Virus record (IMG/VR): IMGVR_UViG_3300021963_000027
Span: 32,001 to 96,000 of that record
Direction: 5' to 3' (one strand)
Source: a virus
Length of the DNA: 64,000 bases
Under the pieces are notes generated by a model. That model saw only the letters and a list, made by a program, of their open reading frames with translations, ran no database searches and was not told the origin of the DNA. The position numbers were made by a program, and so were the translations under genes. Below are positions 171 to 24,969 of this stretch, in pieces; the first letter of the stretch is position 1; the number at the start of each line of letters is the position of its first letter.

Positions 171-476
171 GTGGGATACCATGAGTGTGGTCATTCTGTC
201 ATTGTCTTTTTCATACCCTCCTCACCATCAATTTTCAAATATATGGAACTGATTCCTATAGAATATAAAATAAAACACGATTTCAACGAATACACTTACT
301 ACATCGTGTCGAGAAATACCAATAAAGGGAACCAAAAATGGTTTATCACTATGTATCGTAAAGAAATTTATTTTAATATTGAAGATATGTCTTGGACGTA
401 TTTTGCTTTGGATTGGTGCGGTTTCAACAAACCTGAAGAAGCTTTGGAAGCTTTTGAAAAATATCTTAAAAACTAG
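171..476 (+). CDS. Hypothetical protein
   Basis: ORF track; ends YLKN* inside the repeat motif; start uncertain. Confidence 0.6.
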   Translation: MGYHECGHSVIVFFIPSSPSIFKYMELIPIEYKIKHDFNEYTYYIVSRNTNKGNQKWFITMYRKEIYFNIEDMSWTYFALDWCGFNKPEEALEAFEKYLKN

Positions 477-490
477 AATACAATCGTGTC

Positions 491-757
491 ATGCAGAAAC
501 GTTATTACATGTATCTCCCAATGAATATCGACAAAGAAAAGAATACTCGCTTTGTCGTGGAAACTGATGGCATCCCTCAAAGTGATTTGTTCACTGGTAG
601 AGTCGTCGCTCGTAATTCCAAAGCTTATTTCCATCTTGGTCGTGTAATGAATGAGTGGGTCAATCCCATGGCAGACTTGCGAAATGGTATGCAACCATCT
701 TTTATTCCTATCAGTCTATCAGAGGTCAAAGAGAAATTTGAACAACACATTTTATAA
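491..757 (+). CDS. Hypothetical protein
   Basis: ATG 6 nt after TACAAT of the motif. Confidence 0.75.
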   Translation: MQKRYYMYLPMNIDKEKNTRFVVETDGIPQSDLFTGRVVARNSKAYFHLGRVMNEWVNPMADLRNGMQPSFIPISLSEVKEKFEQHIL

Positions 758-759
758 TT

Positions 760-1038
760 ATGAAAAAAGAAATCGCAGAACTTATTGTTGAAAATAGCTA
801 CGACATGGACATTCGTGAGGATTACAGTGGTCGAGGAATGTTTGGGAATACCACTACTGGTATCGTGTGTGATAGCGAGAAAGATTTTTATAACGCCATT
901 GGTGAACTTTACATGGAAATGATCAAAGATGCTATGATTGAAGCTGAAAATTATGATATGGAGCCAGCACAAGAACTAACAGAAACAATCGGTCGAATTC
1001 GCGTTGATAACATGGGATATCGTTATATTTTTTACTGA
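760..1038 (+). CDS. Hypothetical protein
   Basis: ORF abutting the upstream gene. Confidence 0.75.
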   Translation: MKKEIAELIVENSYDMDIREDYSGRGMFGNTTTGIVCDSEKDFYNAIGELYMEMIKDAMIEAENYDMEPAQELTETIGRIRVDNMGYRYIFY

Positions 1039-1256
1039 TGATAGAAGAACGATCAATATTCATCGAAGAAGGACAAAGCGTATTCTTCCCCAGAGTTGGT
1101 CTTTGTTTTCATAAATCATTTTCGGATAAATTTAAAGGACTGACATTCCCCCAAGCAAGGCGTAAATTGAAGAAGTCTTTCACACATAGTCAGCAAGATC
1201 ACATCATGCACTATCTGAAACAAAAAGGAATCACAATATCACCATTAAAAAACTAG
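1038..1256 (+). CDS. Hypothetical protein
   Basis: TGATG overlap with the upstream gene; ends PLKN* in the motif. Confidence 0.7.
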   Translation: MIEERSIFIEEGQSVFFPRVGLCFHKSFSDKFKGLTFPQARRKLKKSFTHSQQDHIMHYLKQKGITISPLKN

Positions 1257-1299
1257 AATAAAATCGTAGCACAACAACGAACCAACAGAATAACACATT

Positions 1300-2328
1300 A
1301 TGGCACACGAAATTGAAATCGGAACTGATCGGGTAATCACATTTGGCGAACGCGCATGGCATCGTCTCGATGAGAATCACCAGACTCCTCTTACTAAAGA
1401 GATTATCAATCCTTTGTTCATTCCTTATCTGGAAGGGCAAGCTAACGTCAACATCGATGGGGTAGAAGTACCTCTTGAGGGTTGGAAGACTATTGTTGCT
1501 GATCTTCGTAACAGTGACATTGAAGGCGATTTCCGTCCTGTTCATGTTGCGTCTGATCGCTATGAGATTCTCCAAAATGAAGTCTTGTTCGATGCACTGC
1601 AAGAGGCACTGCGTGGAATCAATTACAATATCGTATCTGCTGGCACACTGGCAGGTCTAAAGAACTTCTTCGTATCGGTGGAATTCAATGGAGAATCGAA
1701 TATCAATCTACCTGATGGTAGTGAGTGCAAAGCGTTCTTCTCCCTCTTTACTTCTCATGATGGCACGAAAAATGCTTCCTACTACGATACGACACATCGC
1801 ACTGTTTGCATGAACACTGTTCGTTCTTCTTATCAAGCTCGCGGTAATCAAGGGTTCAACATCGCTCACACCAAAAACGCAAGTGTGCGTATCATGAACA
1901 TGGCTCAAATCTTCAATGATACTCTCCATGGTCGTCGTGTCTTCGAAGAGAATATGGCTGAATTGTATTCCATTGAATGCGATTTGTCCAAAGCAGAACG
2001 ATTCGTTGCTGGTTTCTTGGCAGACAAGACAAAAGCCGAAGAGAAGCTTTCCACACGCTCTTTCAACCAAATGACAGAGATTGTCGCTCTTGCTTGGAAC
2101 GGTGCTGGTAATCGCGGTGGCAATCTGTTCTACCTTGCCCAAGGTGCTACTGAGTATTGGACTCGCGGCAATGGCACTGGTGGTGCAAACAAAGACCTCG
2201 GACGCAAAGCATTCTCTTCTGAGTTCGGTCTTGGCATGGATAACAAGTGCAATTTCCTCTCTGCTCTTAGCAATCCATCGCAACGTGAGAAATTCATCAA
2301 GCGGGGAGATTTGGTTCTTAGCAACTGA
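1300..2328 (+). CDS. DUF932-family phage/plasmid protein (TIGR03299-like)
   Basis: MAHEIE...AWHRL N-terminus; Y-x-I-LQN, SHDG and RTVCMNT motifs typical of the family. Confidence 0.8.
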   Translation: MAHEIEIGTDRVITFGERAWHRLDENHQTPLTKEIINPLFIPYLEGQANVNIDGVEVPLEGWKTIVADLRNSDIEGDFRPVHVASDRYEILQNEVLFDALQEALRGINYNIVSAGTLAGLKNFFVSVEFNGESNINLPDGSECKAFFSLFTSHDGTKNASYYDTTHRTVCMNTVRSSYQARGNQGFNIAHTKNASVRIMNMAQIFNDTLHGRRVFEENMAELYSIECDLSKAERFVAGFLADKTKAEEKLSTRSFNQMTEIVALAWNGAGNRGGNLFYLAQGATEYWTRGNGTGGANKDLGRKAFSSEFGLGMDNKCNFLSALSNPSQREKFIKRGDLVLSN

Positions 2329-2385
2329 TCCCTACGCCCCCCCCCCCCTCCCTCCCTAATTAAAAAACTAGAATAAAATAATCGC

Positions 2386-2778
2386 ATGAATGAATCACGA
2401 ATGTATTTCTTTGTCATGAGACAATTAAACGGTTTAAATAAAGGAATCCAAGCAGGTCACGCAGCAATCGAATATCAACTGGAACACGGTAATAAAAAAG
2501 TTTATAAGGACTTTGCAAAATATCACAAGACATTCATCATCTTGGATGGTGGTGGGTCAAAAGATATGGAATCGCGCCTGACTGAATTGGAATATTTCAA
2601 AGTTGATCATGCACCATTTTATGAGCCTGATCTGAACAATTCTTTGAGCGCAATCGCTTTTATTGTTCCTGAAAGTATCTATGGTATGGATATTAAAACA
2701 ATCGATGATCCTATCTTTGTTACCAGAAATGAAGAATTCGCACGGTATCTCAAATCTTTCAAATTAGCAAGTAATTAA
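2386..2778 (+). CDS. Peptidyl-tRNA hydrolase PTH2-like protein
   Basis: MYFFV...KGIQAGHAA...KTFIILDGG...FYEPDLNNSLSAIAF matches the PTH2-like pattern seen in T4-like phages. Confidence 0.7.
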   Translation: MNESRMYFFVMRQLNGLNKGIQAGHAAIEYQLEHGNKKVYKDFAKYHKTFIILDGGGSKDMESRLTELEYFKVDHAPFYEPDLNNSLSAIAFIVPESIYGMDIKTIDDPIFVTRNEEFARYLKSFKLASN

Positions 2779-2803
2779 AAAACTAGAATACAATAATCAC
2801 ATC

Positions 2804-3298
2804 ATGAAAATTACAACAAACATTCAGTCATTGACTGCCACAGACACCATTTCTAACTTCTTCAAAGGGAAAGGTCAATTCATGCGAGCAGCATGGAAAA
2901 GTAATCCGAAACCAGCAGCAGCGTTTAAAGGTGTTGTTTTGGAAAAACGCACCACCACTATCGTTCGCTCTGGATTGGAATTCCAAAATCTTTCGAGTGT
3001 TAAAGAAGCTATCGAATCTGGTGAACGTGGAGAAGTTCAAGAGCTTCCTTGGGGTGAATGGGTTTATTATCCTTACCTTATCAAGCACAACGAATCGTAT
3101 TATCTGCGAATGTATCCCACTGATTCTATTCCTATCGTGCGATATTTTGTCGATGATGTTGAAGTCACAAAAGATGTTTTCGCGACATATCTCACACCAT
3201 CGGAAGCTAAGAAATTGCTGAGTGAAGATAAAGAAAAACCCGAATGCTTCACGATCAAAATGGAAAACGTTCTCTCAACTGAGGAATTCATTGGCTAA
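2804..3298 (+). CDS. Hypothetical protein
   Basis: 164 aa ORF after the motif. Confidence 0.8.
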   Translation: MKITTNIQSLTATDTISNFFKGKGQFMRAAWKSNPKPAAAFKGVVLEKRTTTIVRSGLEFQNLSSVKEAIESGERGEVQELPWGEWVYYPYLIKHNESYYLRMYPTDSIPIVRYFVDDVEVTKDVFATYLTPSEAKKLLSEDKEKPECFTIKMENVLSTEEFIG

Positions 3299-3335
3299 TC
3301 AATCCCAAACAAACAACACAAATACACAAATACAC

Positions 3336-3572
3336 ATGAATAACAAACTAAATTGCTGTGCATACAACATCGGTCGTCCACAAAAAACCCATACAGGTTG
3401 GGTAAACAGAGGGGCAACTGAAGTATTGAATGCTAATCGTAAAGGTATCGCCAAACTTCGTCAACGTGGATTCACTTGGGCGCAGATCAACCAATGCCTT
3501 GAGCGTGTCGGTGTTAATGTTGGTTACAATAACCTTTATCAGTGGTCTTTGAATCATTACAATAAACGCTAA
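3336..3572 (+). CDS. Hypothetical protein, possible HTH DNA-binding protein
   Basis: Internal ATG at 3336 of the 3222 ORF; IAKLRQRGFTWAQINQCL resembles an HTH. Confidence 0.55.
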   Translation: MNNKLNCCAYNIGRPQKTHTGWVNRGATEVLNANRKGIAKLRQRGFTWAQINQCLERVGVNVGYNNLYQWSLNHYNKR

Positions 3573-3666
3573 TCTGTAGGACTTGGCTGATTCCCTCTCT
3601 CCCATAGCCAAGGGGACTCATATCAGAGAGGGAATTACTTTTAAAAAACTAGAATAGACTCTTCAC

Positions 3667-3846
3667 ATGCACGTTGCCGAAGCTATCCAACACCTCAAAA
3701 AAGTTCTTCCTTACATTCACACCATCGAGCCGATTGGTAAGAATCTATTCACTGTCAAGTATGCAAGCTACAATGGAATCAGATCGTGGAGATGTCCAAC
3801 TTGCTTTGCGGAACATAGAAAGCGCATAGCCGATCTTAAAAACTAG
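3667..3846 (+). CDS. Small hypothetical protein (59 aa)
   Basis: TAGACT-N6-ATG; ends ADLKN* in the next motif. Confidence 0.65.
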   Translation: MHVAEAIQHLKKVLPYIHTIEPIGKNLFTVKYASYNGIRSWRCPTCFAEHRKRIADLKN

Positions 3847-3860
3847 AATACACTTGAGAC

Positions 3861-4013
3861 ATGATAAAAAGTATATTAGAAATTGAAAAATTGATTGATG
3901 ATGCCAAAGATTGCGGTAGAAATTTTAACGGTATGACATATCTCGAAGGTGTTATAGTTGCTTTGGAATGGGTTCTCGGTAATCTTGAAGATGACGAATC
4001 ACCAATCGAATAA
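3861..4013 (+). CDS. Small hypothetical protein (50 aa)
   Basis: TACACT-tgagac-ATG. Confidence 0.65.
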   Translation: MIKSILEIEKLIDDAKDCGRNFNGMTYLEGVIVALEWVLGNLEDDESPIE

Positions 4014-4019
4014 AATATT

Positions 4020-4259
4020 ATGAAAGACGATCACCCATTTGATGATTTTAAATTTACTATTGATTTCACACCAGAGAATGAAAAGTATCTGAAAAGTAAA
4101 GGTTACGAAAAACGCAATGGTTCTTGTGCATATACGAGAACAGTTCTTACGGTAGTGCCTTTTAAAAAGTGGTATTGGGAAGATGCTTATAAATCTAAAA
4201 TCCATTTAAATATCGAAACAGAAACGATTGTGAAAGCACGTTTGGTAATTAAAAACTAG
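4020..4259 (+). CDS. Hypothetical protein
   Basis: ORF ends VIKN* in the motif. Confidence 0.7.
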   Translation: MKDDHPFDDFKFTIDFTPENEKYLKSKGYEKRNGSCAYTRTVLTVVPFKKWYWEDAYKSKIHLNIETETIVKARLVIKN

Positions 4260-4273
4260 AATACACCCAAATT

Positions 4274-4558
4274 ATGGAAAATATCAAATTTATTAATAAC
4301 GATGAGTGGTCTGGTTGTTTTGTGAATAATAATCACCCACCTTACAAATCAAATCCATTGCATCAATATACCTATACTGGAAGTGTGGAGGGTAATAATA
4401 TTGTATTTTATCAATTATACGAACACACATTTCTCTACGAAGAAATAATGCTTTATAAAATTCTTCGATGGGAACCAATTTCGGTGAAAAGACATTGCGT
4501 GTCAATGCTTCGAAATGTCATCGATGGTTTGAATGCTTGTACAGAATTTAAAAACTAG
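4274..4558 (+). CDS. Hypothetical protein
   Basis: Motif upstream; ends EFKN*. Confidence 0.75.
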   Translation: MENIKFINNDEWSGCFVNNNHPPYKSNPLHQYTYTGSVEGNNIVFYQLYEHTFLYEEIMLYKILRWEPISVKRHCVSMLRNVIDGLNACTEFKN

Positions 4559-4572
4559 AATACACTTGAGAC

Positions 4573-5331
4573 ATGACAAATAACCTTGCTACCATCGCCA
4601 AAGCATTCCGTCACAACACTGGTAAGTCTTTTCTTGACTCTGGTGATCACTATGGTCGTCACTATGAAAAACCTCCCATTACTGATGAGACTCCATTGGT
4701 GTCTATTGATACATGGAGAACGGAAATCACTGCCACAATCGACACTGCTCGCTTTCTGGCTGAAACCTGTAAAGTCGATACTGAACTTCAAAATCAATTT
4801 GATAAGTGGGTTGAACTGGAAGAGAATTCTGAATTGAATTGGTTCGAAGCGGGAGAGACATTTGCTACAGAAGTGTTAGGTCTAACACAATTGGCGAGAG
4901 ACAATACTTACAATGGTGAGAATGATTTATCTCAAACGTATGTTTGGGAAGTCTATGCCGATGAGGATGATGGTGATTGGATTTACAATGACGATGCTCT
5001 GATGGTCGTCTATGCTCACACTGGTTGCGATGTACGCGGTGGTTATGCTTATCCCTTGTTCCTACGATGCCAAGGGGATTATTCGATTCCCATGGATTTG
5101 GTAGCTGAATTTTTCATCACCGATGCTCGTTTGAATGGTGAAGACTTGGAAGACGAAGCATGTCGATCATTGGATGAACAATGGCAATGTGGCTATACTT
5201 CCAATCCTGCTTACCATATGTCCAAGGACATTGAGCGCGTATTTGAATTCACCAAGACAGTGAACACGGTGGTCGTGAAGCTGACAAGCGGTGAGATTGT
5301 CAGAATCATGGCAGGAGCAAGAACATATTAA
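4573..5331 (+). CDS. Hypothetical phage protein (252 aa)
   Basis: TACACT-tgagac-ATG; long ORF. Confidence 0.85.
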   Translation: MTNNLATIAKAFRHNTGKSFLDSGDHYGRHYEKPPITDETPLVSIDTWRTEITATIDTARFLAETCKVDTELQNQFDKWVELEENSELNWFEAGETFATEVLGLTQLARDNTYNGENDLSQTYVWEVYADEDDGDWIYNDDALMVVYAHTGCDVRGGYAYPLFLRCQGDYSIPMDLVAEFFITDARLNGEDLEDEACRSLDEQWQCGYTSNPAYHMSKDIERVFEFTKTVNTVVVKLTSGEIVRIMAGARTY

Positions 5332-5353
5332 AAAACTAGATTAAAATTTGGAC

Positions 5354-5551
5354 ATGATGAAGATCGTCAAACTCGACATGGAGTATGTCAATAAAGGAAC
5401 TCCAATGCATGAACTACCCGTTATCTTTAAAGGTAATTCAAAACAATGTAAGGGTATGTTGTTACGCTATCAATTTGTTAAAGAGAGTAATCTCTATGGA
5501 GGTTACTGGAACGATGAAGAAGGAAACAGTTATTTTATTTTACCCTCATGA
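5354..5551 (+). CDS. Hypothetical protein
   Basis: TAAAAT-ttggac-ATG5354 preferred over the TTG at 5348. Confidence 0.7.
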   Translation: MMKIVKLDMEYVNKGTPMHELPVIFKGNSKQCKGMLLRYQFVKESNLYGGYWNDEEGNSYFILPS

Positions 5552-5802
5552 ATGATCTTACTTTACGTATGAATAATCTTGCACGATATGTGAAATGCCC
5601 GATCTACATTGATTACTATACTCATGATAGTTGTGATTGTTACAAGATCGATGTACCATATACTACATATGCCAAAGAAACACGGGTTTTGTGTCGAGTC
5701 GATGAAGGTATCGAACTGGCAAGACAACGAGCAAAACAAATTTTGTTTAACAGAATTGAAGAATCTCTCACCTTAAATCCAATTGAAAGTTATGAACGAT
5801 GA
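5548..5802 (+). CDS. Hypothetical protein
   Basis: ATGA overlap with the upstream gene. Confidence 0.7.
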   Translation: MNDLTLRMNNLARYVKCPIYIDYYTHDSCDCYKIDVPYTTYAKETRVLCRVDEGIELARQRAKQILFNRIEESLTLNPIESYER

Positions 5803-6007
5803 TGATTTAGATATGTTTCGCGCCATTGCGAACGAATGTGATTATGATGAATGTGTTTTGATCATGGAGGATTGTTTGGAATCTGATTCGGAAATCATGC
5901 GAACATCTGTGTATGAAATCTATAAAAGTAGGCTTAGATATTTGAAGGATTTGGAGGATGAACTTGAATACTACGAATATCTTAGCGAATCAGGAAATTG
6001 GGATTAA
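5792..6007 (+). CDS. Acidic hypothetical protein
   Basis: ATG 5792 in the frame of the 5783 ORF; stop at the motif. Confidence 0.65.
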   Translation: MNDDDLDMFRAIANECDYDECVLIMEDCLESDSEIMRTSVYEIYKSRLRYLKDLEDELEYYEYLSESGNWD

Positions 6008-6028
6008 AAACTAAAACATAATTAAGCC

Positions 6029-8753: not shown

Positions 8754-8754
8754 T

Positions 8755-9072
8755 ATGACAATCGCTCAACAATTAAAGATTAAAGAATTCCCATTCAGCA
8801 TCAAAGATTCCAAAGGTAATGTGATTTACTTCGAGAACTCCGATGGATATTGGATTAAACGTGAATACGATTCCAATGGTAATCGGATTTACTACGAGGA
8901 CTCTGATGGAGGTTGGATTAAGCGTGAATACGATTCTGATGGTAAAGAGATTTACTACGAATCTTCTTTCGGAACAGTCATTGATAATCGTCCCAAGACA
9001 GAAATCCAGAAAGCAATTGAACTTCTCACGAAAGAAGGGTTGATCGTGGATGGTAAGATTTTAAAAAACTAG
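8755..9072 (+). CDS. 21-aa-repeat family protein, copy A (105 aa)
   Basis: MTIAQQLKIKEFPF N-terminus, YYEDSDGxWIKREYDSxG repeats, DNRPKT...GKILKN* tail. Confidence 0.85.
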   Translation: MTIAQQLKIKEFPFSIKDSKGNVIYFENSDGYWIKREYDSNGNRIYYEDSDGGWIKREYDSDGKEIYYESSFGTVIDNRPKTEIQKAIELLTKEGLIVDGKILKN

Positions 9073-9644: not shown

Positions 9645-9739
9645 AAGGGTGTACCAGTACGCACTTCTAATGCGTGGACGTTTAAATATACTGTAATTGG
9701 ATATGTCCTATGTAGGTTCGAATCCTATCATCCTTGCCA
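9645..9739 (+). ncRNA. Atypical tRNA-like gene (TCT anticodon loop, no D-arm, 36-nt variable region, encoded CCA)
   Basis: Acceptor AAGGGTG/CATCCTT-G-CCA; T-arm GTAGG-TTCGAAT-CCTAT; stem-loop ACGCA-CTTCTAA-TGCGT; only 7 nt where the D-arm should be. Confidence 0.6.
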
Positions 9740-10655
9740 CTTTTCTAATGAAATAACCTCTTGGTGGGTAATCTATAATACCATATGATTTACACCACTT
9801 TCTAACAGCATTATCTGATATATTATATTTCTTTCCTATTTTTGTGAATGGTAATTCCCATAGTAAATTCTCCAATTCTTCTTTACTAGGTTTTATTCGA
9901 TGTGAATATTGTTTGATCGCAGAACATCGTTTACACCTATAAGACGTTTTGGATATATCAACACCGCAATCTAAACACTTTTTAACCACTTTGTTTTTTG
10001 GAACATAATTGAAGTAATCAAATTCAACTTTAACATTCGCATTTGATAACTTATCTATAAAATCACTCCACTTATCTAAATTAAAACATGCTGAATAATG
10101 AATCTCATATACATCCCATCCACTAAATTCTAACAAATCATGTCTTTCCTGATAGTAAGCTTTCAATGTTCCATCTCTTTCATAATGTTGATTACCATTG
10201 ATTTCTAAAGCTATCATCTTATCGGGTAATGCTATATCAATTGAAAAAGCTCTCCCATTAATCTCTGGTTGATATTCTTCTATAAATGGTATATTCAATT
10301 GAGATAGAAATTCTTTCACTTTCTCACAAGGTTTTGATTTGAACTTGTCTTTATTTCTCCATGGATGTTTATCGGGATTATCTTTCAACCATTGCTTTCT
10401 CTTCTCTGATAGATTCCTTTTTGTTTCCTCTGTATGTTTTTTTCTTATGTTGATATTTTCATTGACGATGAATAATTTTTGTTCTCTCGCATTTTTAAGT
10501 GCTGCATATGGTAATTTATATTCCTTCCTTAATTTAGACATTGTAACGCCTCTATCGTGTAACTCTTGAATATGATTCCAGTCGTATCTATCTTCTAATT
10601 TACCCCATCGCAACTCATTCATGATTTTTGCTCTATCTTTATCAATCGAACTCAT
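9708..10655 (-). CDS. Putative free-standing homing endonuclease (PD-(D/E)xK, Vsr/DUF559-like, with NUMOD3-like, Zn-finger and HTH parts)
   Basis: FIEEY...SIDIALPDKMIALEINGNQHY core; KKHTEETKRNLSEKRK; CLDCG/CKRC; TAAATA-N5-ATG supports a start at 10655. Confidence 0.75.
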   Translation of the reverse strand: MSSIDKDRAKIMNELRWGKLEDRYDWNHIQELHDRGVTMSKLRKEYKLPYAALKNAREQKLFIVNENINIRKKHTEETKRNLSEKRKQWLKDNPDKHPWRNKDKFKSKPCEKVKEFLSQLNIPFIEEYQPEINGRAFSIDIALPDKMIALEINGNQHYERDGTLKAYYQERHDLLEFSGWDVYEIHYSACFNLDKWSDFIDKLSNANVKVEFDYFNYVPKNKVVKKCLDCGVDISKTSYRCKRCSAIKQYSHRIKPSKEELENLLWELPFTKIGKKYNISDNAVRKWCKSYGIIDYPPRGYFIRKVARMIGFEPT

Positions 10656-10748
10656 ATTATTATTTATCTCCAATGTTAATATTTTTGCTCTATCCAATAA
10701 ATAAAGATATTGACTAATTAAAAAACTAGAATACACTTTTCATACAAT

Positions 10749-10820
10749 GCGCTTGTAGCTAATTGGTCTAGCGATCTGCTCATAACGGATGGCAAGCAGG
10801 TTCGATTCCTGTCGGGCGCA
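10749..10820 (+). tRNA. tRNA with CAT anticodon (elongator Met or Ile2)
   Basis: GCGCTTG/CGGGCGC acceptor, ATCTG-CTCATAA-CGGAT, GCAGG-TTCGATT-CCTGT; no encoded CCA. Confidence 0.9.
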
Positions 10821-10854
10821 TCAACTTTTTAAAAAACTAGAATACAATCAACAC

Positions 10855-11109
10855 ATGACAATCGCCAAACAATTAAAGATTAAAGAATTCCCATTCATCA
10901 TCAAAGATTCTAATGGTGAAGGGATTTACCGTGAGGACTCTGATGGATATTGGGAGAAGATAGAACGAAATTCAAAGGGTAAAGTGATTTTCTTCAAAAA
11001 CTCCAATGGAACAATCTATGATAATCGTCCCAAGACAGATGTTCAGAAAGCCATTGAACTTCTCACGAAAGAAGGATTGATCGTGGATGGTAAGATTTTA
11101 AAAAACTAG
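10855..11109 (+). CDS. 21-aa-repeat family protein, copy B (84 aa)
   Basis: TACAAT-caacac-ATG10855; same N- and C-termini as copy A. Confidence 0.85.
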   Translation: MTIAKQLKIKEFPFIIKDSNGEGIYREDSDGYWEKIERNSKGKVIFFKNSNGTIYDNRPKTDVQKAIELLTKEGLIVDGKILKN

Positions 11110-11123: not shown

Positions 11124-11504
11124 ATGACAATCGCCAAACAATTAAAGATTAAAGAATTCCCATTTGAAATCAACGATTCCAAGGGTGATCGGATTTACTG
11201 GGAGGACTCTGATGGATATTGGATTAAACGTGAATACGATTCCAATGGTAATATGATTTACTGGGAGAACTCTGATGGACTTTGTGAGAAGCGTGGATAC
11301 GATTCCAAAGGTAATGAGATTTACGTAGAGTATTCCAACGGAAGTTGGGAGAAGCGTGAATACGATTCCAAGAGTAATCAGATTTACTACGAGGACTCTG
11401 ATGGCTTGATCGTTGATAATCGTCCCAAGACAGATGTTCAGAAAGCAATTGAACTTCTCACGAAAGAAGGGTTGATCGTAGATGGTAAGATTTTAAAAAA
11501 CTAG
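11124..11504 (+). CDS. 21-aa-repeat family protein, copy C (126 aa)
   Basis: Same family, more repeat units. Confidence 0.85.
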   Translation: MTIAKQLKIKEFPFEINDSKGDRIYWEDSDGYWIKREYDSNGNMIYWENSDGLCEKRGYDSKGNEIYVEYSNGSWEKREYDSKSNQIYYEDSDGLIVDNRPKTDVQKAIELLTKEGLIVDGKILKN

Positions 11505-13008: not shown

Positions 13009-13296
13009 ATGGAATACGAACTTATACAAGTAGCTTACGACACAAAACAACGGATTGAGCGAAATTCAAAATTACACTCTCTGTTACTGGAGAGAGTCAA
13101 TCAAGGTGAGCAATTCCCACCTACGGAGAAAAATCATCAATTTGGACAAGACTTTGGTTATCTATCAATTGGCGATGGTTTTAATTTTCAGATTGGTTTC
13201 GCCTCAACAGGATGTAACAAAGCAATCATCGACGCAATTCTGGATATTCTGGAGAAGAAAGTGGCAGAAGACAAGGAATTCATCGAAAATATTTAA
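13009..13296 (+). CDS. Hypothetical protein
   Basis: Motif upstream; possibly a distant paralogue of 8299..8595. Confidence 0.75.
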   Translation: MEYELIQVAYDTKQRIERNSKLHSLLLERVNQGEQFPPTEKNHQFGQDFGYLSIGDGFNFQIGFASTGCNKAIIDAILDILEKKVAEDKEFIENI

Positions 13297-13318
13297 AAAA
13301 CTAGAATACAATTGAGCC

Positions 13319-13540
13319 ATGACATTACAAGAACATATCGCTTACCAAGAAGACAAGATTGATCGCCTTTATGAGCAGTATTATCAGACTCAGGGTTATA
13401 TTCACAAAGAAACAAGTATCAATTCTCATTTGAAAGCGGGAACTTTATTGGAATTGGTGAAACAACTCTATTCTTTAGAGATTGAGTTACGCTCTGCCAT
13501 TGACACTCGCATGACACTTATCAATATTAAAAGCAATTAA
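13319..13540 (+). CDS. Hypothetical protein
   Basis: TACAAT-tgagcc-ATG. Confidence 0.75.
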   Translation: MTLQEHIAYQEDKIDRLYEQYYQTQGYIHKETSINSHLKAGTLLELVKQLYSLEIELRSAIDTRMTLINIKSN

Positions 13541-14787: not shown

Positions 14788-15168
14788 ATGACAATCGCTC
14801 AACAACTTAACGTAAAGGAATTTCCATTCATTATCAAAGATTCCAATGGTAAAGAGATTTACTGGGAGAACTCTGATGGACTTTGGGAGAAGCGTGAATA
14901 CGATTCTAATGGTAAAGAGATTTACTACGAGGACTCCTATGGATTTTGGATTAAGCGTGAATACGATTCTAATGGTAAAGTGATTTACTCCGAGAACTAC
15001 AAAGGATATTGGATAAAGCGCGAGTGGGATTCCAAAGGTAATGTGATTTACTTCGAGAACTCCTATGGACAAATCGTTGATAATCGTCCCAAGACAGATG
15101 TTCAGAAAGCTATTGAACTTCTCACGAAAGAAGGATTGCTGGAAGATGGTGAGATTTTAAAAAACTAG
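14788..15168 (+). CDS. 21-aa-repeat family protein, copy D (126 aa)
   Basis: Same family; ends ILKN*. Confidence 0.85.
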   Translation: MTIAQQLNVKEFPFIIKDSNGKEIYWENSDGLWEKREYDSNGKEIYYEDSYGFWIKREYDSNGKVIYSENYKGYWIKREWDSKGNVIYFENSYGQIVDNRPKTDVQKAIELLTKEGLLEDGEILKN

Positions 15169-16934: not shown

Positions 16935-17117
16935 ATGGAAACAACCAAAGAAAAGATGGAGAAAGCTTACGAGAGCTTGAAAAACATTCAAGAAATCCTA
17001 AGCACTGTAGTTGCCTCTGAAATTGATCAGACTTTCGACTTCTATCGCATGACAAATAACGTTTTCATTGCAAAAATGCACATGGAACATATTCTCCAAC
17101 ACCCAATTAAAAACTAG
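16935..17117 (+). CDS. Hypothetical protein
   Basis: TAGAAT-tgggac-ATG; ends PIKN*. Confidence 0.7.
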   Translation: METTKEKMEKAYESLKNIQEILSTVVASEIDQTFDFYRMTNNVFIAKMHMEHILQHPIKN

Positions 17118-17131
17118 AACATACTTTCATT

Positions 17132-17206
17132 CTACGGAGAAATAGGGTTCAAGTCCCTTAGTCTAGCAATCGCTAGTCATAGCATACTGGTCATGCGCCG
17201 TTTTTC
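17132..17206 (+). ncRNA. Circularly permuted tRNA-like gene (3' half precedes 5' half, opened at the anticodon loop)
   Basis: TACGG-AGAAA-TAGGG-TTCAAGT-CCCTT-AGTCTAG-C-aatc-G-CTAGTCA-TA-GCAT-ACTGGTC-ATGC-G-CCGTT; canonical arm lengths in permuted order; occupies its own motif-bounded cassette. Confidence 0.7.
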
Positions 17207-17232
17207 TTTAAAAACTAGATTAGAATTAGGAC

Positions 17233-18973: not shown

Positions 18974-18987
18974 GATTCAATAAACAC

Positions 18988-19191: not shown

Positions 19192-19213
19192 AAAACTAGA
19201 TTAAAATAAACAC

Positions 19214-19351
19214 ATGATGACACTTGAACAAATTATCAATTTCTTCAAATCTCTGGAAGAAATCACCCATGAAAACATGGAATCTGAATCAGATAGAACG
19301 GAATTGTTGCGCTGTGTTGCTCTAGCAGAAAATGCTCTTCGCGGTGGTTAA
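19214..19351 (+). CDS. Small hypothetical protein
   Basis: TAAAAT-aaacac-ATG. Confidence 0.55.
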   Translation: MMTLEQIINFFKSLEEITHENMESESDRTELLRCVALAENALRGG

Positions 19352-19485
19352 TCAACATGATTAAAAACATTGATAAACCAAGGAAAAACGACTGCGACAA
19401 AATGACGCAGGGGTGTGACAAAATGACGCAGGGATAGACGGATATAGAAAAGAATATAAATAAAAAACTAGAGTAAAATTTTACT

Positions 19486-19728
19486 ATGCTCAACATCACC
19501 ATTGATCCCAAAGAAATCCGCGCTGAATATCGTGAAGACCAAAGCAATCGCGGATGGTTGTATATCTCAGTTCCTAACGGATGGGATGACGTATCAAAAT
19601 TGTGTAAGAAAGTTCTCACGTATGACAATCGCAAATTCTTTTATAGTGGTTGGAATTCCGATAGAAATGATTGTTTCTTCAAGGAAGAACTGGTAGGAAG
19701 TTCCACGGTGGTAGCACGAATCAATTAA
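19486..19728 (+). CDS. Hypothetical protein
   Basis: TAAAAT-tttact-ATG. Confidence 0.75.
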   Translation: MLNITIDPKEIRAEYREDQSNRGWLYISVPNGWDDVSKLCKKVLTYDNRKFFYSGWNSDRNDCFFKEELVGSSTVVARIN

Positions 19729-19749
19729 AAACTAGAATAAACTGATAAC

Positions 19750-19929
19750 ATGATAAGACAATACACCAATCAACTACTGGAAATGATCGACAACGGAATC
19801 CTTGATGCTGAAACGGTTCTCCGTTCGTGTCTCTCTTATATGTCCGAAGCAGAAGTGCAGGACATGGCAGAATCCGAGGGATTCATCGAAGAAGAGGAAG
19901 AGGAAGAGGAAGAGGACGAAGAAGAGTAA
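19750..19929 (+). CDS. Small acidic protein with poly-Glu tail
   Basis: TAAACT-gataac-ATG; ...FIEEEEEEEEEDEEE*. Confidence 0.7.
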   Translation: MIRQYTNQLLEMIDNGILDAETVLRSCLSYMSEAEVQDMAESEGFIEEEEEEEEEDEEE

Positions 19930-20066
19930 AATCCCCCCTCAGTCTCAATAAGGGCATTTTCAAGAATCCTTGATATATCAATGAAAAAAGTCATTTTGCT
20001 CTAGGACTATTTGAAGCTTATTGAGACTGGAAAACACAAATTAAAAAACTAGACTAATATGTGTAT

Positions 20067-20140
20067 GTTGTCGGTGGCGAAGTGGTAACGCGAGGCTGAA
20101 TTAACAGCAAGAAACGTGAGTTCGATTCTCACCCGACGAC
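20067..20140 (+). ncRNA. tRNA-like gene with aberrant anticodon loop (AATTAA) and a G-1:C73-type extra pair
   Basis: G-TTGTCGG/CCGACGA-C acceptor; D-arm GCG-AAGTGGTAA-CGC; T-arm GTGAG-TTCGATT-CTCAC; GCTG-AATTAA-CAGC; starts 6 nt after TAATAT of the motif. Confidence 0.7.
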
Positions 20141-20174
20141 ACACTCTTTAAAAACTAACCTAAAATAATACCAC

Positions 20175-20402
20175 ATGAAAGACATCGCAGTAATCAAACT
20201 TCATAATAGCACAGTAAGTTCCGTTTATAGCACGGACACTGTAGAAGGTGCAAAAGAACTGGTGCGGGATTTGTTCTATTTCCAATTCAAACGCACTCTA
20301 AATGATGAAGAAAATGACCAATTGGAAGACATGTTAGAAGTTTACAATGATGAAGATCATGATAATATTTTCACATTCAGCATCGCATTTGTCAATCCTT
20401 AA
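20175..20402 (+). CDS. Hypothetical protein, paralogue of 16230..16460
   Basis: Sequence similarity visible by eye. Confidence 0.8.
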   Translation: MKDIAVIKLHNSTVSSVYSTDTVEGAKELVRDLFYFQFKRTLNDEENDQLEDMLEVYNDEDHDNIFTFSIAFVNP

Positions 20403-20423
20403 AAACTAGACTAAACTGATACC

Positions 20424-20756
20424 ATGACCAACACCGACCTACAACAACCAAACGATCTATCAAACAAAGGCAAACAAGCCCATGCTGCAATCGTGGCATT
20501 TCTTGAGAAGCACAAACTCACCTACACAGGGGGATGCAAAGCGTTCTATTCACCTAAAGAGTGGAAGGAGCGGGAAGAGGATTACGGGTGTGACAGTGAG
20601 CTTGTCGTGGTGTATGATGGGGGTGATCACGGAGACGCTTTCTCATACAGCCGTGAGAATTACAAGATGATCGAAGCAATGAATGAGATTCTGAAACCGC
20701 TCGGTCTTTACAGTGAACCATGCACCTGCTGGTACACAGCGATCTACCTCAGTTAA
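20424..20756 (+). CDS. Hypothetical phage protein
   Basis: TAAACT-gatacc-ATG. Confidence 0.8.
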   Translation: MTNTDLQQPNDLSNKGKQAHAAIVAFLEKHKLTYTGGCKAFYSPKEWKEREEDYGCDSELVVVYDGGDHGDAFSYSRENYKMIEAMNEILKPLGLYSEPCTCWYTAIYLS

Positions 20757-20778
20757 AAAACTAGACTAACATTGCACC

Positions 20779-20982
20779 ATGATCATTCGATACACTAGCA
20801 AGATGGGATATAAAGCAATGCCAGATGAGAAGTTCAAAGGAACAGTTCTTGAGGCGAAAGCTCATGCGATGGGGAAAATGAATGATGATACTTACACCAT
20901 CTCCATTGAAGACAAGAAAAACAAAATTGTTTTTAACTATGGCTACACGGGAGTATCTCTCGGACAAAATAAAGTGAAATAA
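20779..20982 (+). CDS. Hypothetical protein
   Basis: TAACAT-tgcacc-ATG. Confidence 0.7.
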   Translation: MIIRYTSKMGYKAMPDEKFKGTVLEAKAHAMGKMNDDTYTISIEDKKNKIVFNYGYTGVSLGQNKVK

Positions 20983-21003
20983 AAACTAGACTAACATTGC
21001 ACC

Positions 21004-21114
21004 ATGACATACCTATTCATTCCGACACTCATCATATCATTCATAGCTATCGGCTCCCGCAGCTTCATATTCTATGCTACTGCGATAGTCATGTGGTGTC
21101 TGACACTCAGCTAA
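21004..21114 (+). CDS. Very small membrane peptide (36 aa)
   Basis: TAACAT-tgcacc-ATG; hydrophobic; fills a whole cassette. Confidence 0.55.
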   Translation: MTYLFIPTLIISFIAIGSRSFIFYATAIVMWCLTLS

Positions 21115-21146
21115 GAATTAAAAAACTAGACTAAACTGATTCCGTT

Positions 21147-21272
21147 ATGAAATACAAACACTGCACAATCCTCAAAGCAATCGCTGGTTACAATGTATAT
21201 GCCAGCAATGACATCTTGAATGTTCCTACCATCGCAGCAGCAAAGGCACTGATCGACGGATTAAAAAACTAG
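21147..21272 (+). CDS. Small hypothetical protein
   Basis: Motif upstream; ends GLKN*. Confidence 0.6.
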   Translation: MKYKHCTILKAIAGYNVYASNDILNVPTIAAAKALIDGLKN

Positions 21273-21309
21273 ACTAAACTGATAACGTAACCAATAACCA
21301 CTGAATACC

Positions 21310-21567
21310 ATGACCAATAAAGAAATCATTACAAAATTCGTAAAAGGCGCAACCACTGGCAAGATCACCCGCAACAATCCATATGCAGGGGGCAAGCTCA
21401 CTCCGCTCTTCATCGAGGGTGACACTATCTACTCTTATGGACACCACTTCCCCCTCGCTCGTCGCAATGGCGATGGCACTTTCTGGGTGAATCCCGACAA
21501 GTATAGCGTCACCACCAGCAAGCATCAGTCGCTTGTGCGCTACGCAATCAGCAAATTTTCGGTGTAA
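21310..21567 (+). CDS. Hypothetical phage protein
   Basis: IYSYGHHFPLA...YSVTTSKHQ; motif upstream with a longer leader. Confidence 0.8.
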   Translation: MTNKEIITKFVKGATTGKITRNNPYAGGKLTPLFIEGDTIYSYGHHFPLARRNGDGTFWVNPDKYSVTTSKHQSLVRYAISKFSV

Positions 21568-21769
21568 CATGGCAAAGTCCCCTCTCTTCCGTGGTAGGAA
21601 GAGAGGGGCAACCCTTTTTAAAAAACTAGACTAAACTGTTACCATGCCTGACATCACCGACCTATCCGACAGCGACCTGCAAGACCTGATTGACTACTTG
21701 CAAGGTGTGACAAAATGACGCACCTGAAAAACCAATCCAATTAAAAAACTAGCATAGAATAGCTATACC

Positions 21770-21931
21770 ATGCAAGACTTTAAAGAATATATTCAATCCG
21801 CTCTCGACTCCAACGTTCTCTGTGAGGTTATGGGATGGGACACAAAACACGGTCCAACAGTGGAACAAATGCAAGCACTGGACACCCTTTTGGGTGAGAG
21901 TCTCGAATCTTTAAAAACTAGACTAAACTGA
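21770..21931 (+). CDS. Small hypothetical protein
   Basis: Motif upstream. Confidence 0.5.
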   Translation: MQDFKEYIQSALDSNVLCEVMGWDTKHGPTVEQMQALDTLLGESLESLKTRLN

Positions 21932-21938
21932 TTACGTC

Positions 21939-22079
21939 ATGAAAACTTACTACGCGCATATCCGTCTGACTAACCGCGAGCGCAGTCTGCTCGCGCAAGC
22001 AATCCGCATCAATCGCCACCAGCGCAAAACCTTCACCCGTAAAGATGCCCACAATCTGGCATGGGTGCTGTTCGCATAA
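21939..22079 (+). CDS. Small basic hypothetical protein
   Basis: TAAACT-gattacgtc-ATG; stop at the motif. Confidence 0.6.
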   Translation: MKTYYAHIRLTNRERSLLAQAIRINRHQRKTFTRKDAHNLAWVLFA

Positions 22080-22108
22080 TTAAAAAACTAGAGTAAACTG
22101 ATTACGTC

Positions 22109-22396
22109 ATGAAAACACAAAAAGAGATTAAATTAAAAGACGGTTCAACGCTTGCCAAAGGTCTGCCAGTATCATTCGTTGCTGGCAGTGATAGCCGATG
22201 CCTTGTGCATTCTCCCGCGCATTCTGAGCCGTTGCAAGTGCGCATCACAAGCGCGTTCAAAGCACCTTCCATGGCTTCTCTGGAACGCTGGGGAATGGAT
22301 GGCGTGTGCAAGACTCCCACGGGCAAGCGTGTCGAGCCTGATGGATACGGTTCTGATGGTAGCCCGTCATGGCTGCTGGTTTTCGGACTCATCTGA
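22109..22396 (+). CDS. Hypothetical phage protein
   Basis: VEPDGYGSDGSPSWLLVFGLI; motif upstream. Confidence 0.8.
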   Translation: MKTQKEIKLKDGSTLAKGLPVSFVAGSDSRCLVHSPAHSEPLQVRITSAFKAPSMASLERWGMDGVCKTPTGKRVEPDGYGSDGSPSWLLVFGLI

Positions 22397-22456
22397 ATCC
22401 AAGGGGGGAGCGCATCCTACACGCTCATTAAAAAACTAGACTAAACTGATTGCACC

Positions 22457-22612
22457 ATGAAAGTCTATATCTCTTACAACTGTGGTTTCGCTTGCATCCG
22501 TGAAATGGGAACTGACAAAGTTCTCCACGAACTCAAAGGCAAGCGTTCTATTGAACAGCACTTTGCTACTGGTAAAACCTATGCCAAGAAAATGGGATGG
22601 GAACTCGCATAA
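22457..22612 (+). CDS. Small hypothetical protein
   Basis: Motif upstream and downstream. Confidence 0.6.
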   Translation: MKVYISYNCGFACIREMGTDKVLHELKGKRSIEQHFATGKTYAKKMGWELA

Positions 22613-22640
22613 TTAAAAACTAGCCTAAACTGATTGCACC

Positions 22641-22805
22641 ATGAAATACAACGTAACTAATATTCAATGGGATACCGATGGTATCCCTAACAAATCCCTT
22701 CCGACAAGCATCACCCTTGAAGTGGAAGATGAAGATGATGTGATAGATGATCTTTCCGATGAATATGGCTTTTGCATATTCTCTGCTGACATTGAAGAAG
22801 CGTAA
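22641..22805 (+). CDS. Small acidic hypothetical protein
   Basis: Motif upstream and downstream. Confidence 0.65.
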   Translation: MKYNVTNIQWDTDGIPNKSLPTSITLEVEDEDDVIDDLSDEYGFCIFSADIEEA

Positions 22806-22951
22806 TTAAAAACTAGCCTAAACTGATTGCACCATGAAACTCGACACTAACAAATGCAAGGGACTTCCAATGGGAGTCCGCAATCGCAAGCGCACGATCC
22901 TATCCAAGATCATCCGCTGGTTCAATTAAAAAACTAGACTAAACTACTACC

Positions 22952-23254
22952 ATGTCCAACACCATCAACACCCTGTCAGGCAAGTGCGCGAAATCATTCG
23001 CGTGGAAACCATTCGCGTCCGCGACTATCGCAAAAGGTAAAATTCCCTTTGCTTTCTGGGAGTCAAACCGATCAAAACGTGAGTGCAATAGCATCACGGT
23101 GATTGAGTTCGACTCGGAGCATGAAATTTCATCATGGATCTCGGATCTCTGCTCTGGTGCAATCATTTGCGATTCCAACTATTTCTGGTGCGTCTCAGTG
23201 AATGGTAAATTCGAATCATCAAAATCTCGCTACGGTGGATACCTCAGTGCCTAA
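22952..23254 (+). CDS. Hypothetical protein
   Basis: TAAACT-actacc-ATG. Confidence 0.75.
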   Translation: MSNTINTLSGKCAKSFAWKPFASATIAKGKIPFAFWESNRSKRECNSITVIEFDSEHEISSWISDLCSGAIICDSNYFWCVSVNGKFESSKSRYGGYLSA

Positions 23255-23297
23255 CGGTGCTGGGGCTTTTAAAAAACTAGACTAAACTGTTACTACC

Positions 23298-23504
23298 ATG
23301 AGACTTCAAACCATCATCAATCAATTCGCCATCACCACGCGCAAAACACGCGAGGGCAATACCATCGTGGAAGCACCCATCGGCACTGAGTATCGTCGCT
23401 TTCTTTTCAACCTTCAGGACTACGTTGTCACGGGTTGCGCTGGTGATATGGTATGGCTTAGTCCACGCCAAGGTTTCTATGGCGGTGTCCCATACGGCAA
23501 TTAA
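23298..23504 (+). CDS. Hypothetical protein
   Basis: Motif upstream. Confidence 0.7.
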   Translation: MRLQTIINQFAITTRKTREGNTIVEAPIGTEYRRFLFNLQDYVVTGCAGDMVWLSPRQGFYGGVPYGN

Positions 23505-23529
23505 AAAACTAGACTAAACTGTTACTACC

Positions 23530-23766
23530 ATGAGAAAAGGATACGGACCAACCAACGTTAGCTACCACCTCCCCCTTCAGCGTTTCACCGAGATGGTGAA
23601 GCAGGGGATCAACATCGCTCAGGGAGTCGATGACAATAACAAAGTGCTTTCCAGCACACTGCCGCAAAACCTATCGGAAAATTCAATCAAAAGAATTTTC
23701 GACGATGCGGATTGCGTCTGCTACCACGGAGGTGTTCAGATGATCATCCCCCGTCATCTTGCTTAA
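23530..23766 (+). CDS. Hypothetical protein
   Basis: Motif upstream. Confidence 0.7.
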   Translation: MRKGYGPTNVSYHLPLQRFTEMVKQGINIAQGVDDNNKVLSSTLPQNLSENSIKRIFDDADCVCYHGGVQMIIPRHLA

Positions 23767-23826
23767 AGACTAGGGGGGAGCGCATCCTACACGCTCATTA
23801 AAAAACTAGAGTAAACTGTTACTACC

Positions 23827-24039
23827 ATGATTACTGTATTGACCATCGAAGACCTTGAAACAATCATCACCAAAACGTCCCCGCGCCTTAGTGCGCTCGG
23901 AATCGTGTACGCAATCATCAATGATGATACTGATGAAGAAGTCACAAGCCGATACCCCACAATCGAGGAAGCGTGGGATGAATTTAAAAAGACTTGGGTT
24001 GTCGGGACGTTCACCGTTCTCACAATCTTTAGATCCTGA
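23827..24039 (+). CDS. Hypothetical protein
   Basis: Motif upstream. Confidence 0.7.
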   Translation: MITVLTIEDLETIITKTSPRLSALGIVYAIINDDTDEEVTSRYPTIEEAWDEFKKTWVVGTFTVLTIFRS

Positions 24040-24068
24040 TTAAAAAACTAGAGTAAACTGTTACTACC

Positions 24069-24305
24069 ATGAATACTACCACTGCTACCACCGCCACCGC
24101 CAAGAACTTCATCGTTGCCTTCCACGACTGGCAAGGCAATCGCCATACAGTTCAAGTCAAAGCTTCCGATAAAACGTCCGCATACGATGCGGCGTGGCAA
24201 TGGATTGAAGAGAATCGCGGCGACCAACTGGAAATTGAATTTGCGGGTGTTAAAGAGATTGTCTATCTCAAAGACATCATCGCAGAAGCACTGGCTGCAA
24301 ATTAA
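24069..24305 (+). CDS. Hypothetical protein
   Basis: Motif upstream and downstream. Confidence 0.75.
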   Translation: MNTTTATTATAKNFIVAFHDWQGNRHTVQVKASDKTSAYDAAWQWIEENRGDQLEIEFAGVKEIVYLKDIIAEALAAN

Positions 24306-24327
24306 AAAACTAGAGTAAAATAGCTCT

Positions 24328-24420
24328 GTCAACCCCTTCCAACTATCGCGAAGGGTCAACCTGAACCATCAACTACCCCGTCTCTCCCGACCACAGGGAG
24401 GGGCGGGGCAACCAATCTGC
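24328..24420 (+). ncRNA. Candidate small non-coding RNA cassette with two hairpins
   Basis: No ATG after TAAAAT(24316-24321)+N6; hairpins CCCTTC/GAAGGG and CCCCGTCTCTCCC/GGGAGGGGCGGGG; ends at the next motif. Confidence 0.45.
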
Positions 24421-24451
24421 TTTTAAAAAACTAGAGTAGACTGCTACTACC

Positions 24452-24670
24452 ATGAATTACATCACTCCAGAATACGACTTCACAGGACGCTGCACTCCAT
24501 CGGAGGAAGCACAACGCAAGGAAGCGCAAGCGTTCGCCGCCTATCGCGAAAAGGAAGAAGCTAAAAAATTCAAGGTGCGCGATGCCTTCGGGTTCTCCCG
24601 CTACGCCACCTTGGAAGAAGCGCAAGCGTTCGCCGCCACCCTCAAGAATGCAGAGATCATCATCCTATAA
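24452..24670 (+). CDS. Hypothetical protein with internal repeat (KEAQAFAA/EEAQAFAA)
   Basis: Motif upstream; GGAAG(A)AGCGCAAGCGTTCGCCGCC-like segment occurs twice. Confidence 0.7.
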   Translation: MNYITPEYDFTGRCTPSEEAQRKEAQAFAAYREKEEAKKFKVRDAFGFSRYATLEEAQAFAATLKNAEIIIL

Positions 24671-24699
24671 TTAAAAAACTAGAGTAAACTGATTACGCC

Positions 24700-24909
24700 A
24701 TGAATGAAATTACTGCTGACGAGGCACTTGCCCAAATTCGCTCCATGTCCGATAGAGAGTTAGTTGCTTTCTGGAATGTCTTGCAATTCTCTTCCCGTAT
24801 GGTAGGGAGCGGTCGCGACACTTTCAGAGAACCACTGGTTTCTCTTGTCATGAGTGAGCGCAAAATCCCTCATGAGATTGGGAAGCGAACTCTAACATCT
24901 AACATCTAA
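24700..24909 (+). CDS. Hypothetical protein
   Basis: Motif upstream; the C-terminus runs into the CTAACAT repeats. Confidence 0.65.
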   Translation: MNEITADEALAQIRSMSDRELVAFWNVLQFSSRMVGSGRDTFREPLVSLVMSERKIPHEIGKRTLTSNI

Positions 24910-24942
24910 CATCTAACGCCCACGGTCTAACAGATCGTGGGC
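24892..24942 (+). repeat. (CTAACAT)x3.7 plus hairpin GCCCACG-GTCTAACAGAT-CGTGGGC, copy 1
   Basis: Identical to 26098-26148. Confidence 0.9.
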
Positions 24943-24969
24943 TTTTAAAAACTAGAGCAAACTGTTGCC

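Follow-up and report, generated by a model that had tools for sequence, protein, structure and literature searches.

The stretch analyzed here, hereafter the window, comprises 64,000 nucleotides (nt) of a virus record from IMG/VR (IMGVR_UViG_3300021963_000027), namely positions 32001-96000 of a record of 184,181 bp that is estimated to be 89% complete. It contains a long array in which short genes on one strand are headed by copies of the same repeat. The repeat is best explained as a phage-specific promoter class, designated class E, in which a -10-like hexamer is combined with a conserved upstream box and which would yield messenger RNAs (mRNAs) without leaders, and the resulting modules may be turned over by general homologous recombination. 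A probability of approximately three in four is assigned to this reading. The region on which it is principally founded is as follows.

Positions 466-24969, plus strand: dense part of the class-E promoter array, with 77 co-directional units of motif plus gene or RNA, extending upstream of the window to approximately genome position 1047.

The abundance of the repeat was quantified in the window and then across the genome. With at most one mismatch permitted, TAAAAAACTAG gave 76 matches in the window compared with 2.87 +/- 1.73 in shuffled sequences, 69 of the 76 being located on the plus strand between 466 and 24955. The eight-base core AAAACTA[AG] was found 77 times on the plus strand within 466-24960, in good agreement with the roughly 75-80 copies counted by hand in an earlier, sequence-only reading of this DNA. 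The genome-wide count for which that reading had called returned 106 forward and 7 reverse copies over 184 kb. Nearly all of the forward copies fall within genome positions 1047-61424, indicating that the array spans approximately 60 kb; the region of 26 kb described previously was therefore only its dense distal half. Isolated genes elsewhere are also headed by the motif, including a PRPP-synthetase-like gene on the minus strand and an open reading frame (ORF) of 177 amino acids (aa).

The genome, denoted G000 in the comparisons, was compared with its relatives G002, G004, G005 (complete, 197.7 kb) and a further strain, L285. The motif was present in 82 copies in G004, 33 in G002, with copies continuing past the contig end, and approximately 80 in G005, in which the box takes the form TAAAAACTA(C/G) and the -10 hexamers are varied. 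Many further contigs in IMG/VR carry several copies of the motif followed by ATG. Scanning one genome from each of 185,579 bacterial and archaeal species for the motif with its ATG turned up only 24 matches, which were scattered and never numbered more than one per genome. The box is thus a hallmark of the phage clade and not a common host promoter among the genomes scanned.

Alignment of the copies revealed a common architecture of W-T-T-W-AAAAACTAG-A-n-TA-n-A-M-T followed by five variable bases, C and ATG, the full form of which is WTTWAAAAACTAGAnTAnAMT-N5-C-ATG. Two features illustrate how this architecture is placed relative to the start of a gene.

Positions 13290-13321, plus strand: representative class-E promoter, with an AT-rich start whose TAA terminates the preceding gene, followed by the AAAAACTAG box, AA, the -10-like hexamer TACAAT, TTGAGC, and ATG at the predicted +1.
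Positions 20067-20142, plus strand: transfer RNA (tRNA) cassette with an atypical anticodon loop, in which the predicted +1 (7 nt past the -10 T at 20060) is the first tRNA base; the anticodon was left unassigned by ARAGORN.

Calculation of the information content per position showed that the A and the final T of the hexamer TAnAMT are near-invariant. These are the positions that matter most in bacterial -10 elements. Of the 106 copies, 63 place the A of the ATG 7 nt past the last T of the hexamer, 19 place it at 10 nt and 5 at 9 nt, and C immediately preceded the ATG in 79. Bacterial RNA polymerase normally starts approximately 7 nt after the -10 element, and the predicted +1 is therefore the first base of the start codon. 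The 5' ends of tRNAs, located exactly at the predicted +1 both at window position 20067 and at position 56190 of G005, display the same register. Further upstream, at about -26 to -14, lies the conserved box TTAAAAAACTAGA, beyond which the positions carry approximately 0 bits of information, indicating that a -35 element is absent. On these grounds the repeat is inferred to be a promoter without a -35 element that gives leaderless mRNAs. The presence of a -10-like hexamer at a fixed spacing from the ATG also bears out, as far as the sequence can tell, the earlier proposal that the repeat is promoter-like and that each unit would be a self-contained expression module.

A similar geometry was observed in the two other promoter classes of the genome. 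Across the whole record, 49 genes carry TAAATA-N5-ATG, a box resembling that of T4 late promoters, with the predicted +1 again on the ATG, for example on the minus strand at 47-58 kb of the window; TTGACA is often found a few bases upstream of this late box. Approximately 8 genes carry TTGACA-N17-TAnnnT-N6-ATG, which has the same leaderless geometry. In addition, Shine-Dalgarno (SD)-like four-base words were found upstream of the starts of 7 of 193 long ORFs compared with 18 of 193 in a control taken within coding sequences, and are thus depleted, while the class-E element itself leaves no room for an SD, the ATG being only 7 nt past the -10 hexamer. Nearly all genes of this phage therefore appear, from their sequence context, to be expressed either from leaderless mRNAs or by translational coupling.

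The proposed explanation would proceed as follows. Transcription from a TAnAMT hexamer and its TTAAAAAACTAGA box would start on the start codon itself, about a quarter of the copies giving leaders of 2-5 nt instead. Approximately 100 units on one strand would drive the putatively early or accessory third of the genome, with one strong terminator closing the series. Where SD sites are lacking, efficient translation would be expected only for an AUG at the 5' end of the message or for one coupled to the preceding gene, which is probably the reason why small genes each have their own promoter. The leaderless geometry, which was absent from the sequence-only reading, could alone account for the large number of genes with individual promoters. 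The features at which the array ends are listed below.

Positions 26121-26151, plus strand: strong intrinsic terminator with a 14-bp stem followed by a T9 run, closing the co-directional array.
Positions 26173-26243 (within 26160-26260), no strand assigned: end-of-array element just past the strong terminator, with three motif-like copies (one inverted, two direct) and then G-runs.

This end-of-array element has been conserved in G005, a distant relative (position 73093 of its reverse complement).

The turnover of the units was analyzed by aligning the relatives, as the sequence-only reading had suggested. Insertions, deletions (indels) or replacements of at least 60 bp were counted as gaps, and a breakpoint was assigned to a motif when it lay within 35 nt of one. 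G004 is collinear with window positions 2383-58230, with core genes of 92-98% identity. Within the array, 26 gaps separate G004 from G000, of which 17 have both ends in a motif, and most of the breakpoints lie at a motif (40 of 52 compared with 12 expected, p = 4e-16). At the clean indels relative to G004, the flanking alignments overlap by 18-34 bp, corresponding to the shared motif. The same pattern of motif junctions was found for G002 (genome 1-37348, 90-98% identical) in the dense part of the array, where indels of 2.6 kb (two cassettes) and 384 bp (one cassette) each leave a single hybrid motif at the junction. When the first ORF behind each motif was collected from five genomes, the 279 cassettes fell into 178 clusters, of which 111 were singletons present in one genome only, and a multi-copy paralogue family was found among the clusters. 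The order of two units is also exchanged: unit 6590 precedes unit 7157 here and follows it in G004, at 94-97% identity. It can be concluded that the promoter-plus-gene module is the unit of turnover. The gain, loss and duplication of single genes expected by the sequence-only reading are thus seen in the cassette mosaic of G002 and G004, together with replacement and one reordering. Three assemblies break in or near the array.

According to the proposed explanation, whole promoter-plus-gene modules in this hyperplastic region would be gained, lost, replaced, duplicated and occasionally reordered with the 20-34 bp common to all motifs as the substrate for general homologous recombination of the UvsX type, as has been proposed for the promoter-early stem-loop (PeSL) cassettes of T4-type phages; site-specific machinery would not be involved. 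A UvsX/RecA-like gene is encoded by the phage. A causal role for the motif as a recombination handle that raises the rate of exchange is plausible, given the 20-34 bp over which the motifs are identical and the presence of a UvsX-like recombinase.

Several observations weigh against this reading, in its promoter part as well as in its recombination part. Promoter activity and the position of +1 are sequence-based predictions. A scan of the array for promoters of the sigma-70 type returned 63 compared with 52 +/- 8 expected, which is not an enrichment, and to our knowledge a box at -26 to -14 matches no known element, those of sigma-70 included. In the proximal 30 kb of the array, operons with as many as 15 closely spaced genes lie behind class-E promoters, and their products include an RNA ligase, a KaiC-like ATPase and a histidine phosphatase; one promoter per gene is thus not obligatory. 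Searches of the phage genome for a T7-type RNA polymerase and for AsiA and MotCF (PF09010 and PF09158) gave no match, in searches that had no working positive control and with control genomes that could not show the AsiA/MotCF families; a second sigma factor was likewise not found, in a search whose control was uninformative. Regarding recombination, a breakpoint was present at 34 of 73 motif-bearing gene boundaries and at 5 of 12 motif-less boundaries (Fisher p = 1). Whole-gene indels with microhomology of only 3-7 nt and without the motif were found both inside the array and in the late region, where one is flanked instead by copies of the late promoter. Finally, the co-occurring strain L285 is 100% identical over 16 kb downstream of window position 19928 and carries unrelated genes upstream (L285:1-303 compared with window 19625-19927); the junction of this very recent replacement is located at a motif-less gene end.

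The last three results favor the best-surviving alternative, in which the motif is simply a promoter used many times over that plays no particular part in recombination and the cassette-shaped differences reflect the survival of indels that respect genes. Within the array the motif is itself the gene boundary, and therefore any gene-respecting indel ends in a motif. Set against this alternative are the 18-34 bp of motif shared at the junctions of clean indels, which is far above the homology at motif-less junctions, the encoded UvsX-type recombinase, and the small sample of motif-less boundaries (n = 12). Neighboring promoters are, furthermore, more alike than distant ones (0.556 compared with 0.449, with a permutation maximum of 0.494), which points to local duplication or gene conversion, although functional sub-types specific to a region would also account for it. 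Overall, we regard the promoter-only alternative as a serious contender, with a chance somewhat below even. Since breakpoints follow gene boundaries in general, the data do not yet justify the label of recombination handle; of the double role proposed in the sequence-only reading, the promoter part thus stands as a prediction from sequence, while the handle part is not demonstrated, motif-less boundaries being broken equally often.

A further question concerns what reads the box. The only sigma-like match in the genome was a weak one to Sigma70_r2 in an ORF of 146 aa at genome positions 115775-116215. This ORF was considered as the class-E reader and rejected, as it is most simply explained as a gp55-like late sigma factor. 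The genes behind TTGACA-type promoters include a methylase, a DUF4326 protein, a glycosyltransferase and a 3D-domain protein, and no regulator was found among them. A bolder extension of the class-E reading would take the invariant AAAAACTA(G/C) box as the target of a phage-encoded or injected factor, either sigma-like or appropriating, that redirects the host RNA polymerase to more than 100 promoters without a -35 element. The whole clade would then be leaderless in its early, sigma-70-type and late promoters, and the 30-nt unit would double as a mobile module for recombination, moving single genes between co-infecting phages, possibly as circles. This extension is offered tentatively, as a possibility that we would not yet favor.

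Another explanation, which we consider rather unlikely, is that the AAAAACTAG box mainly serves as an operator for a phage regulator that switches the whole early set, with the adjacent -10 hexamer alone acting as the promoter for host RNA polymerase. The near-invariance of the box across the clade, while the hexamers vary (TACAAT, TAGAAT, TAAACT, CAAAAT), would fit such an operator, as would its location where sigma-70 makes few base-specific contacts and the lack of multiple box copies in any host-type genome scanned. The candidate DNA-binding regulator that this explanation calls for was not found. Moreover, a bare -10 hexamer without a -35 element or a TGn extension is usually a weak promoter, and the box is therefore more likely to be needed for initiation itself, as in the class-E reading.

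The weakest alternative, the integron-like array of the sequence-only reading, in which a site-specific recombinase recognizes the repeat and excises or inserts single-gene circles, shares the cassette-like anatomy and the cassette-sized indels, but it is very improbable given that the 184-kb record contains no Phage_integrase (PF00589) or Resolvase domain, that there are no attC-like hairpins, and that each cassette has its own promoter in place of a common Pc. The PF00589 profile search was validated by positive controls in 14 of 14 genomes and the Resolvase search also had a positive control; both negatives cover the 89%-complete record, so that such a gene is possible in the missing 11%. 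The search for a recombinase urged earlier was thus negative for integrase and resolvase and positive for the UvsX-like protein. Structure at the junctions is also low. Junction windows fold less than mid-gene windows (-8.2 compared with -11.6 kcal/mol), terminator-like sites inside the array are at the level of chance (14 compared with 14.7 expected), and a hairpin with a T-run was found at only about 6 of 77 junctions, all of them distal, in line with the previous remark that most copies lack a stem-loop.

The contents of the 77 units within 466-24960 were then classified. Approximately 62 consist of a single ORF that fills the unit, 8 hold 2-4 ORFs that overlap, abut or are tightly packed, and 2 carry a tRNA (10748-10822 and 20067-20142). 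In the remaining five, no in-register ORF is present; a leader of approximately 40 nt was seen in two, and likely RNA units are among the other three. Across the distal 25 kb, the promoter is repeated ahead of almost every small ORFan. The stop codon of a gene is the TAA or TAG within the next motif in at least 40 units, so that there is essentially no other intergenic DNA. The previous description of units with one short ORF or RNA gene and almost nothing between them is therefore accurate. Its size range of about 100-1100 bp holds at the lower end (101 bp) and is exceeded at the upper end (1443 bp), and its statement that all genes lie on the plus strand is true of the array units, with one minus-strand ORF of 342 aa as the exception. 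Twenty cassette proteins compared with Pfam and PHROGs mostly had no match, and a function is lacking for most of them. The individual features of the array and its surroundings are as follows.

Positions 9708-10736, minus strand: ORF of 342 aa within the array that weakly matches a RAP domain (E = 1e-4) and is conserved in G004.
Positions 10748-10822, plus strand: tRNA-Met cassette, with the predicted +1 located 4 nt before the 5' end of the tRNA.
Positions 24306-24426, plus strand: unit without an ORF, with a predicted transcript of approximately 99 nt and a 13-bp GC-rich hairpin (minimum free energy -36.4 kcal/mol, z -4.1).
Positions 24945-26094, plus strand: last class-E unit, a promoter with a 374-aa gene (phrog_2319, function unknown).
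Positions 29421-29452, plus strand: isolated class-E promoter with TTGACT at the -35 position, heading a 64-aa ORF and the tRNA cluster at 29654-31243.
Window positions 8755-9072, 10855-11109, 11124-11504 and 14788-15168, and genome positions 29581-30175: paralogues of the MTIAKQL... family.

The minus-strand ORF could be an endonuclease-like selfish gene. The unit at 24306-24426 sits in a block that is 94% identical in G004 and, judging from its modeled fold, could be a small RNA or an attenuator. A tRNA T-arm-like segment was also observed in the 101-bp unit at 17110-17210, and a long but weak tRNA-like match (31 bits) at 9645-9736. The paralogue family, the members of which start with MTIAKQL... 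and contain internal repeats of approximately 63 nt, is dispersed in the array, with 6 copies here and 7 in G004; the copy at 11124-11504, the only one scanned, had no match in Pfam or PHROGs. Between window positions 20000 and 26000, the GC content climbs from approximately 36% to 50% in the distal array, and a promoter sub-type with TAGACTAAACT and an ATG 10 nt past the -10 hexamer is found there, the same regional sub-type occurring in G004 and G005. At 2340-2362, directly before a motif, there is a poly-C tract (C10-12 TCCCTCCC) whose length differs from that in G002; by its sequence it is read as a homopolymer length variant at the 3' end of a gene. The segment 127-476 is present here and replaced in G002, and is the sole place where a GGAGG-like run was seen by a possible GTG start; it may be a recently acquired foreign gene.

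Regarding the lineage, the window encodes a T4-type major capsid protein (Gp23), the Gp20 portal, a ribonucleotide reductase and a CCA-adding enzyme. By this capsid protein the best matches among isolates are cyanomyoviruses, with identity to any isolate of only approximately 33%, while hundreds of metagenomic relatives, on contigs of 185-203 kb, are 78-100% identical in the same protein. A megablast search of GenBank phages with 24 kb of the window gave no match, and hence no isolate relative is present in that collection. The low identity to isolates together with the hundreds of metagenomic relatives indicates that the phage belongs to a widespread, uncultured and very distant T4-like lineage. 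Bacteroidota, cyanobacteria, actinobacteria and the Candidate Phyla Radiation (CPR) were weighed as hosts without a decision; the TTGACA-type promoters would argue against Bacteroidota.

It is helpful to compare the array with known systems. The closest are the PeSL cassettes described in the T4-type phages RB49/phi1, T4/PST and KVP40/nt-1 (Arbiol et al. 2010, PMC2839356; Comeau et al. 2014, PMC4122927). The PeSL is an element of approximately 100 bp that combines a consensus sigma-70 -35/-10 promoter, a stem-loop terminator and an SD before the start codon (PMC2839356); approximately 50 copies are present per genome, mini-circles have been shown, and general homologous recombination has been proposed (PMC2839356, PMC4122927). 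Both systems consist of repeated modules, with early promoters in PeSLs and putatively early ones here, located upstream of ORFans in hyperplastic regions, and in either case the preceding gene terminates within the AT-rich start of the element. Copy numbers are comparable in order (approximately 50 for PeSLs and 100 here), and the element borders the indels and replacements that distinguish close relatives, although here motif-less boundaries are broken just as often. The element analyzed here differs in being approximately 30 nt long, in having a box at -26 to -14 with no -35, SD or leader, and in lacking the sigma-70 -35/-10 consensus, while a stem-loop accompanies only about 6 of 77 copies. 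The class-E array therefore works like PeSLs without being a strict member of them, and is a large leaderless variant. A literature search for a leaderless T4-like clade found only the PeSL papers.

Promoters for leaderless mRNAs occur in Actinobacteria, in Deinococcus-Thermus and in some Thermus phages. They resemble class E in having a -10 TAnnnT located 6-7 nt before the A of the AUG, no SD, and a weak or absent -35. At the level of sequence class E conforms to this arrangement, with the predicted +1 on the A of the AUG and no SD, as reflected in the 7-nt spacing, the C at -1 and the tRNA 5' ends; the difference is that here all three promoter classes of a T4-like phage are involved, together with an extra invariant upstream box. 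T4 middle promoters combine a -10 element with a MotA box centered at -30, the sigma factor being appropriated by AsiA and MotA. In the same manner, class E has a -10 hexamer with a phage-specific upstream box in place of the -35, but its box is located at -26 to -14 and has another sequence. Integrons are similar as one-directional arrays of single-gene units with high turnover, and differ in that here there is no IntI and no attC, the cassettes have their own promoters, and variation is also found at motif-less gene boundaries.

These results carry the PeSL idea of shuffled accessory genes bounded by promoter-bearing repeats over to an uncultured branch of the T4-like phages that is both abundant and very distant, and they argue against an integron-like mechanism there. 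The regulatory grammar is different, having no -35, SD or leader. Particular to this genome are the approximately 100 copies over about 60 kb, the upstream box that takes the place of the -35, and the apparently leaderless geometry of all three promoter classes. The approximately 100 aligned natural promoter variants with their regional sub-types constitute a data set for finding the reader of the box. Furthermore, a T4-like genome that appears to be leaderless throughout is unusual, and would be informative on the translation and transcription apparatus of the host.

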